A stretch of DNA of 64,000 nucleotides from a virus. Below the pieces are notes generated by a model. That model had not been told where the DNA came from, did no database searches, and saw nothing but the letters and a program-made list of their open reading frames with translations. The stretch lies in the IMG/VR virus record IMGVR_UViG_3300027798_006580; one strand, given 5' to 3'. Numbering within the stretch: position 1 is the stretch's first letter; each line of letters opens with the position of its first letter. This document shows positions 7,873-53,676 of this stretch, one piece after another. The translations under genes were made by a program, and so were the position numbers.

Positions 7873-8187
7873 ATGAAAAAATTATTCATCACTCTGGCAT
7901 TGGCCTGTGCTACATTGCCCGCATTGGCACAACATCATGGCCACGGCTTTCGTCACCATGGACATCACAATCACCACTACAGACATCCTGGATATGGCAA
8001 CTGGGTAGCACCGTTAATTATTGGCGGCGCCATTGGTTATACATTGACTAGACCAGAACCTGTGATCATACAGCAACCAATATATATCGAACAGCAACCA
8101 ATGCCATTAAATCAAAATTGTGGACCGTGGAAAGAAGTCTGGACTTCTGATGGTAAAATATATAGAGAAAGAACTTGCACTAACTAA
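7873..8187 (+). CDS. His-rich exported/membrane protein
   Basis: Signal peptide, His-rich tract, GG-containing hydrophobic segment; AAGGAG RBS. Confidence 0.7.
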   Translation: MKKLFITLALACATLPALAQHHGHGFRHHGHHNHHYRHPGYGNWVAPLIIGGAIGYTLTRPEPVIIQQPIYIEQQPMPLNQNCGPWKEVWTSDGKIYRERTCTN

Positions 8188-8225
8188 TACTGATGTATAA
8201 CTAAACTATCCTCTAAGAACATTTT

Positions 8226-8471
8226 ATGAAAACAATTATTTTACTAACAGCAATTTTACTATCGGGGTGTAGTTCACTGAACGCAGTACTGTATAACAGT
8301 GCCAATGCTTGTTTAGAAGCACAGAAATCAATTAGTAAAGATTCTGCGATGACAGAAATTGCAAGATTAAATGCAATACAAGAAATAGCAAAAACTGCCA
8401 ACGACGAAACTAAAAGAACACTGTCGTCTCTAATAAATAATAAACGACAAACTGATATTATATGTAAATAA
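8226..8471 (+). CDS. Small lipoprotein
   Basis: Lipobox LSGC. Confidence 0.65.
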   Translation: MKTIILLTAILLSGCSSLNAVLYNSANACLEAQKSISKDSAMTEIARLNAIQEIAKTANDETKRTLSSLINNKRQTDIICK

Positions 8472-8477
8472 TAGTTA

Positions 8478-8815
8478 AGACTGTATGAAGTAGATTGAAA
8501 CGTGTCCTGGACGGGGGTGCGAGTCCCCCCAGGTCCACCATAAGGAGACTGTATGGATCCTGAAGTAAAATACCAATATGTATGTGGAATATTGAGTGTG
8601 ATTATTTTGGTATTTTTTATATTCTTTTTATGATGGGCCTGACATAGATTCGACAGGGCAAAGAGTAATGAAATGGACAGTCCGGCAATGTAGAAGCCGT
8701 TAGGATTGGGGCGACCCGGTCGAAGAAGCAAAACAAAGTAAACGCAAACGACTCACAGTTCGCATTAGCTGCCTAAACTCAGCTTAGGGTAAGACATACC
8801 TCGTAACAGAAAATC
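8478..8815 (+). ncRNA. ssrA: Circularly permuted two-piece tmRNA
   Basis: Acceptor piece ending CAGGTCC-A-CCA at 8540 precedes the 5' end GGGCCTGACATAGATTCGAC at 8635; G3-U70 pair; tag ANDSQFALAA* at 8744-8776; outer ends approximate. Confidence 0.92.
8553..8633 (+). CDS. 26-aa hydrophobic mini-ORF inside the tmRNA intervening segment
   Basis: AAGGAG RBS then MDPEVKYQYVCGILSVIILVFFIFFL*. Confidence 0.45.
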   Translation: MDPEVKYQYVCGILSVIILVFFIFFL

Positions 8816-8845
8816 AGAAACCCGCTTCGGCGGGTTTTCTTTTCT
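8816..8845 (+). terminator. Rho-independent terminator
   Basis: AAACCCGC-TTCG-GCGGGTTT plus T tract. Confidence 0.9.
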
Positions 8846-8894
8846 AATTAATTATAAAAATTTTAAAGAGTTCTTCACTGAGGCAGATGTATTG

Positions 8895-9779
8895 TCAGTT
8901 CGGGGAATCGTTGATTATCTCACTACTGCAATAGTATTTGCCACCGGTGGTCAGCAAATCGCTGATTAACTGATCCAAAGGTACACTAATGAAATCTTTT
9001 CTGTAAGTATGTCTTGGACCTTGTATTACATAGTCTATGTTTTCTGCACCAGACATTTTTGGAAAATATATTAAATCTTTACCCCAATACTTTCCATAAT
9101 ACATGCCCTTGATAAAAGAGTCCCACCAACTGATATTACGTACTCCCTGTTTTGTGTATAGTCCATGAGCATTAATAAATGCTGTCATTATATCATCTTT
9201 AACTGTACTTACAACAACTTCGCTGGTTTTGTCAAATAATATATATTCAGCGGTTCTACCCAAAGTGTCTCCTGCACGTTTTCGTGACATTTCAAAAGTA
9301 TGATAACCTTCATAAAAATGTGCAATACCTTTAACAAAGGTTATAAAAGGGCCGTCTCCGCCTTGCAAAAAGTTTACATCAGGTAATTGGCTGAGAAACT
9401 TACTATGAATTATTTGAAATGGCGGAATATTTAAATTTTTACTGATGTCAAGTATTTCTTCTTTACAGGCCATGGGATCAATGTCAATGATATGTGATTT
9501 AAACTGCCAAGCACGTTCCAATTTTTTTAAATTATTAAACTCAATATCATTGTAACCTGGCATATAAAGAAATGCAGTTTCAATTTTAATACCTTGATCC
9601 ATAAAACTTCTCAACGCGGCTTGACTATCAACACCAGAGCTAATACCTAATATAAGTTTGTCACCAAGGGCAATTATGTCTCTGGCTCGACGATTATACT
9701 CTTCTCGAAGATTGCCCACTTCCCACTGACATTGGTCGTATTCGATGTAAAATCCTTCACTGTCTGTGTTGAATTGCAT
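8895..9779 (-). CDS. PP-loop (adenine nucleotide alpha-hydrolase) family protein
   Basis: LILGISSGVDSQ. Confidence 0.7.
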   Translation of the reverse strand: MQFNTDSEGFYIEYDQCQWEVGNLREEYNRRARDIIALGDKLILGISSGVDSQAALRSFMDQGIKIETAFLYMPGYNDIEFNNLKKLERAWQFKSHIIDIDPMACKEEILDISKNLNIPPFQIIHSKFLSQLPDVNFLQGGDGPFITFVKGIAHFYEGYHTFEMSRKRAGDTLGRTAEYILFDKTSEVVVSTVKDDIMTAFINAHGLYTKQGVRNISWWDSFIKGMYYGKYWGKDLIYFPKMSGAENIDYVIQGPRHTYRKDFISVPLDQLISDLLTTGGKYYCSSEIINDSPN

Positions 9780-9815: not shown

Positions 9816-10964
9816 ATGACAAACAAAAAATTAGGGTATTATACATGTGCTGGTCTAGAATTCGAATCTAAAATTCAAGCATGTCTACATGCAGTCGCCA
9901 CAGGCATGGAAGTTCAATGGCATTTCAACGATGAGATTTTTTCAAAACACAATTGGAGTATAGAGCCAGAATTAAGTCTTGACGCACTATATAATTTAAG
10001 AAGCAGACAGATTAGAGAAAAGTACGACTACGTTGTATTAAGTTATAGCGGTGGCGCAGACAGTCATAATATCTTAATGAGCTTTATCCGTCAAGGTCTA
10101 CACATAGACGAAATTGTTGTAAACAACATGGAAAAAGCCAACCGGCAATTCACGGATCTCAATATAAACAATACAGATCCGACTAATACTCCTGCCGAGT
10201 TTAGATTACAAACTGTGCCTAGATTAAAGGAAATCGCAGTACTAATTCCTAGAACAAAAATTACAGTCTGTGATCTCAGTGATCACTTGTTTGACTACAT
10301 GAACTCGGCCAAGGATGCCAGTTGGGTACTGGGCCGCAAGGAAGGCCTTAACGCTGCCAATGCCACTAGATATAATTATTTGGCCATGACTGAAATTAGA
10401 AAACAGTTTGATAAAAACAAGTCCATGGTCATTATTGTGGGTGTAGACAAACCACGTTGTTTTATACGCAATGGTGATTTTTATATTAGATTTGCAGATC
10501 GTGCTGCCAACGTCGTGCCAATTCCCAATCACTTGAACGAGTACACAAACAGTACAGTAGAACTATACTATTGGAGTCCGGACAGTATAGATATTTTAAC
10601 CAAGCAAGCACATGTTGTTCGGCGCTGGCTAAAATTTAAACCTGAAATGCAAAAATTGTTTGACAGTGATGTAATGGCGGATCCCAAGATATTTAGAATT
10701 TACCACGAGCAACTTCTTAAAAATATTGTATATACGACATGGAATGAAAATTGGTTTCAAACAGATAAGGCAGTCAAAGACTGGACCAGTGAATTTGATC
10801 AATGGTTTGAAGATGGATACAGTGATACAAGAGCATATGGTATTTGGCTTGAGGGGGTTAATTTTGTCAAGGACAAACTACACACATTTGCCAATCATCG
10901 CAATGGTGATCTTGACGGATTAAAATTATTTGGCAAAAATTATCGAGTGGGCCCACTTTTATAA
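9816..10964 (+). CDS. PP-loop (adenine nucleotide alpha-hydrolase) family protein
   Basis: VVLSYSGGADS; start reassigned to ATG 9816. Confidence 0.75.
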   Translation: MTNKKLGYYTCAGLEFESKIQACLHAVATGMEVQWHFNDEIFSKHNWSIEPELSLDALYNLRSRQIREKYDYVVLSYSGGADSHNILMSFIRQGLHIDEIVVNNMEKANRQFTDLNINNTDPTNTPAEFRLQTVPRLKEIAVLIPRTKITVCDLSDHLFDYMNSAKDASWVLGRKEGLNAANATRYNYLAMTEIRKQFDKNKSMVIIVGVDKPRCFIRNGDFYIRFADRAANVVPIPNHLNEYTNSTVELYYWSPDSIDILTKQAHVVRRWLKFKPEMQKLFDSDVMADPKIFRIYHEQLLKNIVYTTWNENWFQTDKAVKDWTSEFDQWFEDGYSDTRAYGIWLEGVNFVKDKLHTFANHRNGDLDGLKLFGKNYRVGPLL

Positions 10965-20798: not shown

Positions 20799-22190
20799 TT
20801 AAGGCGGGCCGTGTCTTGCTAGATAATTAAGAGGTTGCTCTAACATTATATCAGGGCAATGTCTTGCCAAGATGTCATGTACTTCTGGCAAGACCTTTCG
20901 CCAGTTGGTGCCCCTGATTTTATCTAGTTTGTCCATCACTGTTACAAATTCTTGATATTTTGTTGAATTTTCTTGGTCTATATATTTTTCTAAGAATTTA
21001 ATAATTGCTTTATACCACTTAGTGCGATTTTCGGTATGATGCATTAAACTTTTATAATGTTCGATAATTTCTTCTTTGGCCGGCCTTGGCAGAGATCGCA
21101 AATCTAACCAAGGCGGACCTTCTAAAAATCTAAATTCTGCAGGGACGTCCAGTTCTTCGGCAACTTCGACTATTCGTTCTATAGAATATATAGACGCGAT
21201 TCCTATGCAACATGAGAGATAATGTATATTCAGGCCATTTTCTTTAATAGTTTTTATATTTTTAACAATATTATTATAATTTCCCGGAAAACGAATAAGA
21301 TTGTATCGTTCTTCGATGTCGTCGAGACTAACACAAAAGTCAATTTTCTTAAAATGTTTAAATTTTTCAATAATTTTATTATTGATCACCGTTAAATTTG
21401 TATCGTAACGGAGTGTGATATTTTTTGCAAATCCTCTGTCTATTAGTATAGTCAGTATTTTATTCATAGCAGGAGAAATCAACGGCTCGCCACCGGAAAA
21501 ATAAATGTATCTCAAGTCGGGTGCAATCTTATCAAAACGTTCCCACCAAATATCACTTTCCCACCATTTCGAATAATCTAAAATCTCTCGACCTTTGGTA
21601 TCTGTGGTCATCCTATAATCTTTGTCACCCCACTCAGTGCCCGCTGGCGTAACTGGGACATCGCCCCAAAGTTTACTCCAATCTTCATACCAAAGACTGC
21701 TGTATTCGGGACTGCACATTATACATTTTTGATTGCATAAATTGCTCAATCGAAGACCTAAATTTACAACCTTGGCAGTCGAAGTACCATCTGGCAATGT
21801 ATATTGATCGGCCTGATTCCAACGGACATATTCTGGAATTATTTGAGTCATGTGCCTATTGACTCGTTGTCTTTTACTCTTGCCCCATTTTTTAACATCT
21901 TCGTTGTCCCATTCATTAAGGCCTTTAGTGCTATGCTCCGAGTCATAACAATTACGGCATCTTTTTACTTGAATATTTTCTTTAAGGTGTAATCGATGAT
22001 TTTTATGAGTTACACTATTAATAGCCTCTTCTATCGAATGGGTCATGACATTCATTACATTGCCATTCTCATCATGCGCCATTCCATAATCTTTATTATA
22101 ATTTGCTAGGCAACATATTTTATAGTCACCGAGTGTATTGATTTCTATTTGGCTCCACAACTCGCCACAAAAACTTTCTAAATTAAACAT
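20799..22190 (-). CDS. Twitch-domain radical SAM protein
   Basis: CNQKCIMC, SGGEP, N-terminal CC..CxxC. Confidence 0.9.
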   Translation of the reverse strand: MFNLESFCGELWSQIEINTLGDYKICCLANYNKDYGMAHDENGNVMNVMTHSIEEAINSVTHKNHRLHLKENIQVKRCRNCYDSEHSTKGLNEWDNEDVKKWGKSKRQRVNRHMTQIIPEYVRWNQADQYTLPDGTSTAKVVNLGLRLSNLCNQKCIMCSPEYSSLWYEDWSKLWGDVPVTPAGTEWGDKDYRMTTDTKGREILDYSKWWESDIWWERFDKIAPDLRYIYFSGGEPLISPAMNKILTILIDRGFAKNITLRYDTNLTVINNKIIEKFKHFKKIDFCVSLDDIEERYNLIRFPGNYNNIVKNIKTIKENGLNIHYLSCCIGIASIYSIERIVEVAEELDVPAEFRFLEGPPWLDLRSLPRPAKEEIIEHYKSLMHHTENRTKWYKAIIKFLEKYIDQENSTKYQEFVTVMDKLDKIRGTNWRKVLPEVHDILARHCPDIMLEQPLNYLARHGPP

Positions 22191-48352: not shown

Positions 48353-49768
48353 ATGACTATAAAAGGAAATAATTTTAGCAACGAAAGTTTTTGTCCAGAA
48401 GTATATAATCAGATTCAGATTGATATGCAAGGCGATTTAAGAGTTTGCTGTTTGTCTTCTGACGGCGGCCTAACCAGAGAGGCCAACGGAACTCCAATGA
48501 ATGTAAAAACACATTCAATCATCACGGCAATGAACAGCGAAATACACAAACAACACAGGTTAGATTTAAGTAATAACATTAAACCTCAACGATGTAGTAA
48601 TTGCTATAATTGGGAAAATTACAGCAATGATACGAGTCGTCGTAAAAAGTTTATCAGATTATCTCAAAATAAACTTGACTATGTCAAAGCCGGTGAAGCA
48701 TTTGATGTAACAAACGATGATGGCTCCGTTGATGTCGACACTACTAAGTTAATTAATTTAGATATAAGATTTGGTAATCTGTGTAACCTCAAGTGCATTA
48801 TGTGTGATCCAGGAAATAGTAGTCTGTGGTATGAAGACTGGGATCTGCTGTCTAGAAAATTTTCAAAAACTGAAGCCAGCGGACGATCAGTTAAATTTCA
48901 ATTGGGTGGAATAGATCCAGTCACTGGAAATACTCAGTACTGGAAAGATAAAACTAAATTTTATTCTCTTGAAAAGAATCAGTTAGGCAAATTGAAATTG
49001 CAAAATGAAGAAAACTGGTGGGAAACTGAATCGTGGAAAAATCAGTTTAAAAAAATTGCGCCCCAGTTACAGCATATTTACTTTACAGGCGGAGAGCCCT
49101 TGCTGGTACCAGCAATGGAAGAACACTTAACTTATCTAATTGAAAACGATTTTGCTAAAAATATTATGCTGTGTTACGACACAAACTTGACAGTTGTCAA
49201 TTCAAACATAATTAACAAATGGAAATTTTTTAAAGAAGTTGAATTGAGGGTCAGCGTCGACGACACTGGTGACCGCTATAATGTGGTTCGAAATCCTGGA
49301 AATTTTGACAAGTTATATGATAACATAACTCGAATTCAAGAAGCCAACATAAAAATTAAATACATAAGCATAGTTTGTCACTTGGCCAATGTTTATGGTG
49401 TAATTCGCGTTGCAAAGTTAGCAAAACAGATAGGTGCTTCGATGTCATTGAGATTTGTAACTAGACCGGGATGGATGAATGTGTCGAATTTACCTAATTC
49501 TGCTAAAGAAGAAGTAATTTCAGTGCTTACTAAATTTTTAGAATCCGAAGAATGTGAATCTATCCGAGGATATGAAAATTTCGTTCAACAACAAATAAAG
49601 CATTTTCGTGACAACCCAACAACATCTACACCAAACACGGAATCAAATTTGGAAACTTTTGTGCAAGTAATGAATCTAATGGATCAGTCTAGAAATCTAA
49701 ACTGGAAACATACATTGTCTGATATTGCAGAACTTTTAAAGAAACATGTGCCGGGATTGGACATATAA
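48353..49768 (+). CDS. Twitch-domain radical SAM protein
   Basis: CNLKCIMC, TGGEP; paralog of 20799-22190. Confidence 0.9.
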   Translation: MTIKGNNFSNESFCPEVYNQIQIDMQGDLRVCCLSSDGGLTREANGTPMNVKTHSIITAMNSEIHKQHRLDLSNNIKPQRCSNCYNWENYSNDTSRRKKFIRLSQNKLDYVKAGEAFDVTNDDGSVDVDTTKLINLDIRFGNLCNLKCIMCDPGNSSLWYEDWDLLSRKFSKTEASGRSVKFQLGGIDPVTGNTQYWKDKTKFYSLEKNQLGKLKLQNEENWWETESWKNQFKKIAPQLQHIYFTGGEPLLVPAMEEHLTYLIENDFAKNIMLCYDTNLTVVNSNIINKWKFFKEVELRVSVDDTGDRYNVVRNPGNFDKLYDNITRIQEANIKIKYISIVCHLANVYGVIRVAKLAKQIGASMSLRFVTRPGWMNVSNLPNSAKEEVISVLTKFLESEECESIRGYENFVQQQIKHFRDNPTTSTPNTESNLETFVQVMNLMDQSRNLNWKHTLSDIAELLKKHVPGLDI

Positions 49769-50375: not shown

Positions 50376-50585
50376 TCGCAGAGTGTGTAATAAGAGCAGA
50401 AATGCCCAGGAAACGAGGTCCTGACATCGCACTATAAACATTGATGTAAACGGGCGGCGACTAGGATGGAATCCCTTGTGTGGGACTAAAAATTAGATCG
50501 TATTAAAGCATATTACTAAATTAAGGATGGTCCACTACATTGGCCTTAGTATGCTTTAATACACACATTCCAAAGAGTGTGTTTA
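50376..50585 (+). ncRNA. Candidate structured RNA
   Basis: Several helices including 13-bp GTATTAAAGCATA/TATGCTTTAATAC; no ORF. Confidence 0.45.
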
Positions 50586-51503: not shown

Positions 51504-51588
51504 ATAAATTATTAGTTTAATATATTTATTATTTTAATACACATATTGATCTGGCCTGGACTAAAATGTCGCAGACAGTATGTTTAAT

Positions 51589-51673
51589 GGAGATGAAGCA
51601 TCAATGGTGATGCAGTGGACTGTAAATCCGCCGCCTTAGGGCACGACTGGTTCGATCCCAGTAATCTCCACCA
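51589..51673 (+). tRNA. tRNA-Tyr(GTA)
   Basis: Loop CTGTAAA, long variable arm, CCA. Confidence 0.88.
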
Positions 51674-52091: not shown

Positions 52092-53342
52092 ATGTCAAAA
52101 ACCAAATTCTCTCAAACTGTTATATGTCCAAATCCATGGACTGCAATGTATTTTCATATCAACTCTCCAAGTCCGTGCCATATCATAAGAAACGGTCTCA
52201 TGAACATGACCATGGAAGAGTATATAAACAGCGAGTGGTTAGTAGACATTAAACAAAAAATGATTAATGGCATACGCCCAAAAGAATGCGAAAATTGCGA
52301 AACGAAAGAAGGATTAGGTCTCAAAAGTACCAGGGGTGCTTCTTGGCGTTACTGGAACATAGGTGAAGAGCCCTATCTAGAAGATCAACCATGGTTTGAC
52401 GATATAACTGTTGATACTCCCACAAAGCCTAAACGAATAGAATTGAGATTTAGTAATTTGTGCAATATGAAATGCAGAATGTGTGACGAAACATCGAGTT
52501 CTGAAATTGCAAAAGAAAAACAAAAATACAATTTAGCCAGTAATGGTATTCATAATCCCGATAATATCTTTTTCGAAGACACTGACGACAGCGTGTTAAA
52601 AATTACTGATGATAATATTCAAGGTTTAAAGAATATCGAATTACTAAGTGAATTGCGTAAAGTATGTTTTACTGGCGGGGAACCATTTCTAATCAAAGGT
52701 TATTATGATTATCTTGATTTTTTAATTGAACACAAATTTAACGAGCAAGTTGAATTAGAATTATTTACAAATACAAGTGTATATAATAAACTGTTTGTAG
52801 ATCGTTTAATGAAATTCCCTAAAGTAGAATTTACCATGAGCATCGACGGCGTTGGTAAAACAGCTGAATACATTAGACACGGTACAAAGTGGGACACAAT
52901 TGAAAAAAATGTATTAACATTCAATTCTATGCCAAAGCCAATATTATGCTCGATAAATGTTGCAATTTCAGCTTATGTTTTGTTAGATGTATCTAATCTG
53001 GCATTATTTTTGATGAGACTATATCGTGAAAATAATAACATATTGATTAAATGTTATACTATATTAGTGCAAAGTCTTCGTTTTACATCTGCACCTGCAC
53101 ATCTCAAAGAACGTATGTTACGTGAAATTGATTTAGCAGTAGATATATTAGACTGTCCTAATTTTGCAATATTTAGAAATGAATTGCTGAATTTACGTCC
53201 GAAGGTGGTGAAGATGTTGAATGTTTCTAGGCCGCTCGATGAGAAGAACTTTATAGAGTTTACTCAAACATACGATAAGATTAGAAACGAATCGTTCGAG
53301 AATACATTTGGTATCCCGTTAATTTTAGATAAGGAAAAATGA
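52092..53342 (+). CDS. Twitch-domain radical SAM protein
   Basis: CNMKCRMC, TGGEP, YIRHGTKW. Confidence 0.9.
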   Translation: MSKTKFSQTVICPNPWTAMYFHINSPSPCHIIRNGLMNMTMEEYINSEWLVDIKQKMINGIRPKECENCETKEGLGLKSTRGASWRYWNIGEEPYLEDQPWFDDITVDTPTKPKRIELRFSNLCNMKCRMCDETSSSEIAKEKQKYNLASNGIHNPDNIFFEDTDDSVLKITDDNIQGLKNIELLSELRKVCFTGGEPFLIKGYYDYLDFLIEHKFNEQVELELFTNTSVYNKLFVDRLMKFPKVEFTMSIDGVGKTAEYIRHGTKWDTIEKNVLTFNSMPKPILCSINVAISAYVLLDVSNLALFLMRLYRENNNILIKCYTILVQSLRFTSAPAHLKERMLREIDLAVDILDCPNFAIFRNELLNLRPKVVKMLNVSRPLDEKNFIEFTQTYDKIRNESFENTFGIPLILDKEK

Positions 53343-53453: not shown

Positions 53454-53529
53454 GGGACTATAGCTCAGCCGGTAGAGCAGCGGACTTTTAATCCGTTGGT
53501 CGCGAGTTCGAATCTCGCTGGTCCCACCA
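53454..53529 (+). tRNA. tRNA-Lys(TTT)
   Basis: Loop CTTTTAA, CCA. Confidence 0.95.
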
Positions 53530-53601
53530 TATAGAAACACATTTTTTAACTAGGCATGCCTCTGCAAGGGTTTAACAGCAGTTTTAAGTGTGTTTCTATA
53601 T

Positions 53602-53676
53602 GGTGATATAGCACAGTGGTAGTGCATCCGCTTCATACGCGGCCGGTCGTTAGTTCAAATCTAACTATCACCACCA
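53602..53676 (+). tRNA. tRNA-Met(CAT), elongator type
   Basis: Loop TTCATAC; paired 1-72; no GGG/CCC anticodon stem. Confidence 0.85.

Follow-up and report, generated by a model that had tools for sequence, protein, structure and literature searches.

The spacer of this phage's permuted tmRNA gene is likely to hold a genuine small accessory gene, a reading frame of 26 codons that occupies most of the spacer's 94 nt and encodes a hydrophobic peptide. Since these excised bases carry what appears to be a conserved membrane-peptide gene, the spacer of a stable RNA probably doubles as messenger RNA; that such segments are absent from the mature tmRNA is taken from what has been reported for permuted tmRNAs generally (PMC11915505). 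The gene lies in a window of 64,000 nt, by which we mean the whole stretch of DNA analysed, taken from the minus strand of an IMG/VR virus contig (IMGVR_UViG_3300027798_006580) 111.6 kb long. CheckV puts the contig at ~31% completeness, so the phage is probably a jumbo phage, and DNA runs containing the window's stretch come from freshwater and lake metagenomes of many studies.

The permuted tmRNA gene and its intervening segment

ARAGORN placed a permuted tmRNA with the tag ANDSQFALAA at 8448-8867, along with 17 tRNA genes elsewhere in the window. Rfam models matched the window at 114 bits for RF04321 (gathering score 47) and 105.4 bits for RF01850 (84), and a tmRNA search of the phage's own genome gave an outcome identical to that for the window. 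The features discussed here are:

8444..8472, + strand: promoter-like site ACGACA-17 nt-AATAAT, just 5' of the tmRNA gene, from a consensus scan (weak alone)
8479..8540, + strand: acceptor piece, with T arm, 3' acceptor strand (8530-8536), discriminator A and CCA (8538-8540), from the Rfam RF04321 alignment, ARAGORN and the sequence; its 5' end at 8479 is approximate, being the start of the RF04321 model
8539..8548, + strand: 5' arm of the closing stem, containing the Shine-Dalgarno (SD) motif AAGGAG (8542-8547), paired with 8623-8632 in minimum-free-energy and centroid folds
8541..8634, + strand: intervening segment (IVS, or spacer), 94 nt, between CCA and G1 of the coding piece, a predicted long hairpin
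8553..8633, + strand: ORF of 26 codons plus stop, from the ORF list, homologues, codon-position pattern and T periodicity
8623..8632, + strand: 3' arm of the closing stem, from the folds, encoding the last residues and overlapping the stop codon
8631..8634, + strand: UGAU motif, whose UGA is the ORF's stop, abutting the coding piece and near-universal in phage spacers
8635..8848, + strand: coding piece, with 5' acceptor strand (8635-8641) and tag frame (8744-8776), from ARAGORN and the Rfam RF01850 alignment to 8840
8817..8838, + strand: terminator hairpin, followed by a T tract to 8848 as the gene's end, from a terminator scan

The order of acceptor piece, CCA, IVS and coding piece is that of the beta-type permuted tmRNA (RF01850; RF04321), and the likeness extends to the tRNA-like domain, the G-U third pair, the LAA-ending tag, carriage by a phage and a freshwater source; two-piece tmRNAs carried by phages have been described, chiefly in aquatic ones (PMC9004378). 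In the acceptor stem, 8530-8536 pairs with 8635-8641, the GGGCCTG at the start of the coding piece meeting CAGGTCC through a G-U third pair (G8637/U8534), and the CCA at 8538-8540 is encoded. The ARAGORN tag frame consists of ANDSQFALAA plus a stop and has a hydrophobic, ALAA-type end. Promoter-like site, acceptor piece, spacer, coding piece and terminator form one transcription unit, and in a homologous locus, L297, a consensus TTGACA-17-TATAAT stands at the position matching the window's promoter-like site. The boundaries of the IVS follow from the last base of the CCA (8540) and the first of the coding piece (G8635).

Flanking ORFs of the window matched no Pfam family, and the neighbourhood thus gives no functional clue. 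Upstream of the tmRNA gene lie two predicted exported proteins without a Pfam family, one of 104 aa with a signal peptide and a His-rich stretch (7873-8187) and one of 81 aa with a lipobox, LSGC (8226-8471). Beside the gene are two divergent ORFs without a Pfam match, at 8895-9779 (-) and 9816-10964 (+), with an SGGxDS / SSGxDS motif of a kind typical of PP-loop ATP pyrophosphatases; judged by this motif, both may be divergent RNA-modification enzymes. Among the tRNA genes are three radical SAM proteins (20799-22190, 48353-49768 and 52092-53342), two of them with SPASM domains, and long hairpins directly 3' of a tRNA CCA or between tRNA genes (53527-53604, 50495-50570 and 51535-51592); a tRNA-Lys/tRNA-Met spacer in the window folds into a hairpin at -28.7 kcal/mol. 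The ACACAUU / AGUGUGU-type cores of these tRNA-adjacent hairpins are similar to the stems that close the non-coding tmRNA spacers of other phages, and the hairpins may be a common processing signal or a mobile hairpin cassette. A blastn search of 50,697 phage records with the complete tmRNA gene and a tblastn search with the 26-aa peptide each gave 0 matches, leaving no cultured relative at hand.

Within the spacer, TAAGGAG (8541-8547) is followed after a 5-nt gap by ATG at 8553, which is spacer position 13, and the frame runs to a TGA stop at 8631-8633, covering 86% of the spacer. The initial annotation, made from the sequence alone, had described such a 94-nt segment with TAAGGAG at its start and a near-filling ORF; all of these are present where it placed them, and the translation is as it gave. 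From the CCA to the start of the AAGGAG is 2 nt, and a single base lies between the stop and G1 of the coding piece. The 26-aa product has an acidic or polar N-terminus of 9 aa, followed by a 17-residue hydrophobic segment that reaches the C-terminus, with a maximum 15-residue Kyte-Doolittle mean of 3.19; it found no match in PHROGs.

Taken by itself, the frame is mildly unusual. A 5-mer SD precedes 18% of the long ORFs in this genome compared with 2.3% of random windows, and the motif is thus meaningful here. Of the last 14 codons, 13 have T at codon position 2, whereas 7 have it at position 1 and 6 at position 3. This concentration is a coding-type periodicity and not a plain T run, which bears on the earlier caution that a T-rich arm alone could yield a hydrophobic ORF. 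When the spacer interior was dinucleotide-shuffled with the start and final UGAU held fixed, the frame nevertheless stayed open in 7.5% of shuffles. On the window's sequence alone the frame exceeds chance only weakly and its features are partly generic, so the verdict rests on comparison with other spacers.

Folded by itself, the spacer is predicted to form a single long hairpin (-21 kcal/mol, z -2.4). Its ends pair, as had been proposed, and the SD is thereby hidden: arms 8539-8548 and 8623-8632 form a closing stem of 10 bp, 2 of them G-U, which is also predicted in the context of the precursor. In every predicted fold, whether of the spacer, the precursor or other ORF-bearing spacers, the SD is base-paired, and its placement within the closing stem is conserved in the predicted folds of all ORF-bearing spacers. 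According to these models, pairing could keep the ORF silent.

The same fold prompts another explanation, in which the spacer is a structured, non-coding processing hairpin and the SD-like motif, ATG and frame are by-products of its purine-rich and U-rich arms. Consistent with this, the whole spacer is a single long hairpin, and the peptide, polar at its head and hydrophobic in its tail, follows the base composition of the arms, a layout that an abundance of purines in the 5' arm and of U in the 3' arm favours by itself. Non-coding spacers, too, conserve the UGA and a leading (U/A)AAG, the chance of an open frame is the 7.5% given above, and similar long hairpins occur 3' of tRNA CCA ends in this genome, such as that at 53527-53604. 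We regard a purely structural spacer as quite unlikely, for reasons that emerge from its homologues and from the wider class.

Homologous spacers and spacer exchange

Homologous spacers were drawn from pattern scans of viral and metagenome contigs, with a permuted tmRNA confirmed by Rfam at all of the loci:

L297: spacer identical, 94 nt; neighbour genes ~70-92% identical, upstream region unrelated
L344 / L360: spacer 91.5% identical, 2 residue changes; only the tmRNA aligns to the window, at 83%
L349: spacer 85% identical
L308: spacer 61% identical in DNA (39% of bases changed); predicted interior fold differs
L516: spacer 2 nt shorter through a T-run deletion; last residues altered, frame enters the coding piece

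The four distinct 94-nt spacers (window, L344/L360, L349 and L308) all have the SD, ATG at position 13, 26 codons and a UGA stop, and both alternative frames contain stops in 4/4. Variable columns at codon positions 1/2/3 number 12/6/19, a modest skew from a small family in which 3 of the 4 distinct sequences are close, and pairwise pN/pS values are 0.25, 0.50 and 0.61. The residues M1, D2, E4, Y7, Y9 and C11 are kept together with the hydrophobic tail, and the Y-x-Y-x-C motif and hydrophobic character persist even at the 61% DNA identity of L308. Judged with its homologues, the frame is clearly non-random, and the pattern of substitutions shows the homologues evolving under protein-level constraint. 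The initial annotation's proposal of an ORF for a small hydrophobic membrane peptide thus fares well under the comparison that it had itself suggested: across homologous spacers the SD, ATG, frame and stop are kept while changes concentrate at third codon positions, and with the periodicity of T the ORF behaves as a real coding gene.

A non-coding hairpin sits poorly with this three-base periodicity, which is seen in substitutions and in T content alike, and with the survival of the frame in L308, where 39% of the bases have changed and the interior is predicted to fold differently. At the base of the stem in L308, a compensatory change from U-A to A-U involves the first base of the spacer and the base it pairs with, and turns the last codon from Leu to Phe; it indicates that stem and coding constraints act on the same bases.

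The locus with the identical spacer, L297, differs from the window in ~45 extra bases in the coding piece, upstream of the tag frame (L297:1666-1711 vs window 8708-8717). Its tmRNA is otherwise 96-99% identical, and the insertion is a second variable site of the gene.

Close relatives do not always carry the ORF. In L178, the closest relative of the window's phage, the flanks are 90-96% identical and the spacer is unrelated, 174 nt long, with the closing stem kept and without SD, ATG or long frame. A hairpin retained with these three lost, the outcome against which the ORF had been staked in advance, therefore does occur; the spacer was exchanged whole, however, so that the window's ORF was replaced in this relative and has not decayed there. 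Conversely, L296 has the window's exact coding-piece 5' end together with a different membrane-peptide ORF of 41 codons, and an RNA-library contig from another relative bridges the window's two junctions with 105 other letters. Unrelated spacers in similar tmRNA genes indicate that spacer contents are swapped, and by these comparisons the ORF is dispensable, a cargo that the spacer may or may not carry and no constant component of the tmRNA.

The 174-nt spacer recurs with few changes in L048, though the tRNA-like domains of L178 and L048 differ. It matches no Rfam family and could be a structured RNA of its own. At L178:5140-5320 (minus strand), the T loop and the region 3' of the acceptor strand look non-canonical.

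Spacer contents across phage tmRNA genes

Two samples blind to spacer content, one from a T-arm pattern and one from a coding-piece pattern, together gave at least 155 permuted tmRNA loci and at least 110 unique spacers, 4 to 382 nt long. Among the matches listed, an SD-like motif lies within the first 12 nt of 34 of the 96 unique spacers of at least 60 nt. An ATG/GTG frame over at least 70% of the spacer accompanies the motif in 32/34 cases and is found in 10/62 spacers that lack it (Fisher p = 2e-14 among the matches listed, counting unique spacers, which are not phylogenetically independent); the two motif-bearing spacers without a single filling frame are L077, which has two ORFs, and L139. 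The pattern CCACCA-TAAGGAG-ATG by itself is unspecific, marking tmRNA-like loci in 14 of 117, and the SD-ATG spacer pattern in bacterial and archaeal genome contigs gave 0 tmRNA-like loci among the 120 matches listed, a result uninformative on bacteria.

By our own grouping of the peptides, spacer ORFs fall into more than 20 unrelated families. Over half of these are peptides of 19-41 residues with a single hydrophobic segment, several with an acidic head like that of the window's peptide. In the other ORF families with more than one member, pN/pS is below 1 in 10/10 and ranges from 0.02 to 0.75 (0.07-0.75 in seven further membrane-peptide families, 0.02-0.25 in three families of larger ORFs), and an excess of third-position changes is general (13/11/35 and 0/1/13, for example). 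The largest spacer ORFs have 86-122 codons, one of 86 codons matching the Pfam family CxxCxxCC above its cut-off, and clearly soluble proteins also occupy the slot. About 60% of the spacers among the matches listed are without an ORF, as is that of the cultured jumbo phage Xanthomonas phage XacN1, whose permuted tmRNA has a non-coding spacer.

Some features are common to spacers with and without a frame. UGAU precedes GGG in nearly all of the at least 110 unique phage spacers, coding or not, a leading (U/A)AAG is likewise common to nearly all, and most short spacer ORFs use the UGA of UGAU as their stop. Closing stems, in contrast, differ with content: those of non-coding spacers are of a G-C containing, AAAGCAUA type, whereas ORF-bearing spacers pair AAGGA with U-rich partners through G-U. 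The near-perfect link between SD motif and filling frame, together with the use of G-C rich AAAGCAUA-type stems, and not AAGGA with a U-rich arm, by non-coding spacers, further argues against frames that arise as by-products of hairpin composition.

Three further arrangements were seen. In the 115-nt spacers of L019, L114, L125 and L160, a CCGxGCxxCVW frame spans the whole spacer with no internal start codon and is strongly conserved (pN/pS 0.02-0.13; changes by codon position 0/1/13); its start and stop must therefore lie in the pieces of the mature tmRNA. In L014, L029, L023, L059, L123, L298, L301, L311 and L516, the ORF passes the UGAU and ends 12-39 nt inside the coding piece, so that the message left by RNase P cleavage would lack a stop codon. 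A 215-nt spacer, found at L077 and at five loci identical to it, has two successive small membrane-peptide ORFs.

Translation, processing and known systems

If the spacer is indeed a gene, its peptide would be translated either on the precursor before processing or on the 94-nt spacer after its release, and the A-U/G-U rich closing stem would have to open before a ribosome could start. The predicted peptide would enter the host inner membrane and there serve the phage as an accessory factor that it can dispense with. Spacer contents would pass between phages by recombination through the conserved tRNA-like flanks, making the spacer a cargo slot for many unrelated small genes.

Transcripts offer a weak hint. 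In two metatranscriptome libraries from different studies, exact contigs extend from the upstream gene across the acceptor piece and end within the spacer, at 8575 and 8571, so that they cover the SD, the ATG and the ORF's first 6-7 codons; they are compatible with an unprocessed read-through precursor or with DNA carry-over. RNA-library contigs leave 8581-8622 uncovered and cannot show RNA ends, and most of the others come from related tmRNAs of other phages. A metatranscriptome contig of run X17 matches 130 nt of the window exactly (8665-8794) with adapter sequence on both sides, and is a single short cDNA insert from within the mature tmRNA.

The fit of the ORF between the processing sites suggests a closer connection. 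With the SD 2 nt after the CCA and the stop 1 nt before G1, translation and processing of one molecule should exclude each other, and we hypothesize from this geometry that translation is coupled to tmRNA maturation, a tie that had been raised at the outset. In its full form, an exact-fit mini-messenger whose translation is mechanically linked to maturation, the proposal is doubtful. The SD lies so close to the CCA (2 nt) and the stop so close to the RNase P site (1 nt) that ribosomes and processing enzymes would compete for one helix. Once the RNA had been cut, a ribosome terminating on it would stand at its extreme 3' end, with release factor and the tmRNA of the phage itself as rivals for it. 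Where frames cross the cleavage site, as in L014, L023 and L516, the processed RNA would be a non-stop message, and the dose of peptide would report, or be set by, the ribosome-rescue state of the infected cell.

The same geometry could also serve without the peptide. The act of translation would then be what matters, in a cis-acting device similar to a leader or upstream ORF: ribosomes at the SD or UGA would open the closing and acceptor stems and so time or limit RNase P and 3'-end processing of the tmRNA by the cell's translation capacity. An initiating or terminating ribosome at the ends of the spacer would, given the size of its footprint, cover one strand of the acceptor stem, and the positions of the SD (2 nt after the CCA) and stop (1 nt before G1) suit such a role, as do the conservation of a closing stem with an internal SD in all ORF-bearing spacers and the highly variable content of the ORFs, replaceable between close tmRNAs. 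We think this explanation unlikely. Its indifference to the product is hard to reconcile with pN/pS below 1 and a most conserved codon position 2, in the window's own family and in ten others, or with hydrophobicity and Y-x-Y-x-C kept at 61% DNA identity. Some spacers moreover carry ORFs of 86-122 codons, one with a Pfam domain, and ~60% have none, so tmRNA maturation does not require an ORF.

The initial annotation had also likened the peptide to type I toxins. Several toxins of this kind, such as Ibs, ShoB and TisB, are small, with a hydrophobic single helix and a buried SD, and the likeness stops at size (20-30 residues), the single hydrophobic helix and an SD paired in the primary transcript. 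A complete module of the toxin-antitoxin type, in which a toxic membrane peptide's mRNA stays inert by SD sequestration until processing and an RNA serves as antitoxin, is nevertheless very improbable here, even with a predicted fold that hides the SD. A consensus scan, itself a weak test, found no sigma-70-like promoter on the opposite strand at 8150-8950. The peptide is without a PHROGs match, a charged C-terminal end, common in type I toxins, is missing from the spacer peptides, the slot houses clearly soluble proteins as well, and the host transcript is a stable-RNA precursor.

With a genuine small gene in the spacer as the preferred reading, the nearest published analogue is the 23S rRNA IVS of Coxiella burnetii, a 428-nt segment cut by RNase III that carries an S23p ORF (PMC4990558). 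There, too, a stem-closed segment with an ORF inside, horizontally acquired, is excised from a stable-RNA precursor. The Coxiella ORF, however, has a poor ribosome-binding site, is decaying and is reported as probably untranslated in vivo (PMC4990558), whereas the window's SD is strong and conserved, its frame is under purifying selection and its product, which has no PHROGs match, appears unrelated to S23p; searches of eight larger ORFs from other phages' spacers against Pfam and PHROGs likewise gave 0 S23p-like matches. Group I introns of tmRNA and tRNA genes can contain homing-endonuclease ORFs (PMC11915505), and they share with the spacer a protein gene within a part of the tmRNA gene that is removed from the mature RNA. 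The spacer, in contrast, would be removed by tRNA-type end processing without a rejoining of its flanking pieces, and phage spacers would encode tiny membrane peptides or small proteins where the introns encode endonucleases. An intron reading of the window itself was rejected: its Rfam matches include no intron family, and 94 nt is too short.

For permuted tmRNAs, the published IVS is treated as discarded, whereas that of the window carries an ORF. A 2025 tmRNA database paper describes the IVS as absent from mature tmRNA and mentions inside such segments only a tRNA-Ala gene and a repetitive element (PMC11915505), and our full-text literature searches found no publication on protein genes inside tmRNA spacers. 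Genes within excised segments of stable-RNA precursors are themselves already known, and the tmRNA spacer is a new setting for them.

In conclusion, few stable RNAs have been studied as well as tmRNA, and in its two-piece form the spacer has so far been regarded as waste. If phages routinely use this spacer as a slot for small genes, the tmRNA precursor would be a dual-function RNA, at once messenger and stable-RNA precursor, and catalogues of phage small proteins would miss a whole class, because the frames fall below the limits of gene callers and inside an RNA gene. The many independent families of membrane peptides are candidates for phage factors at the host membrane, and an SD in the closing stem with a stop at the RNase P site would make a simple system for competition between translation and RNA processing.
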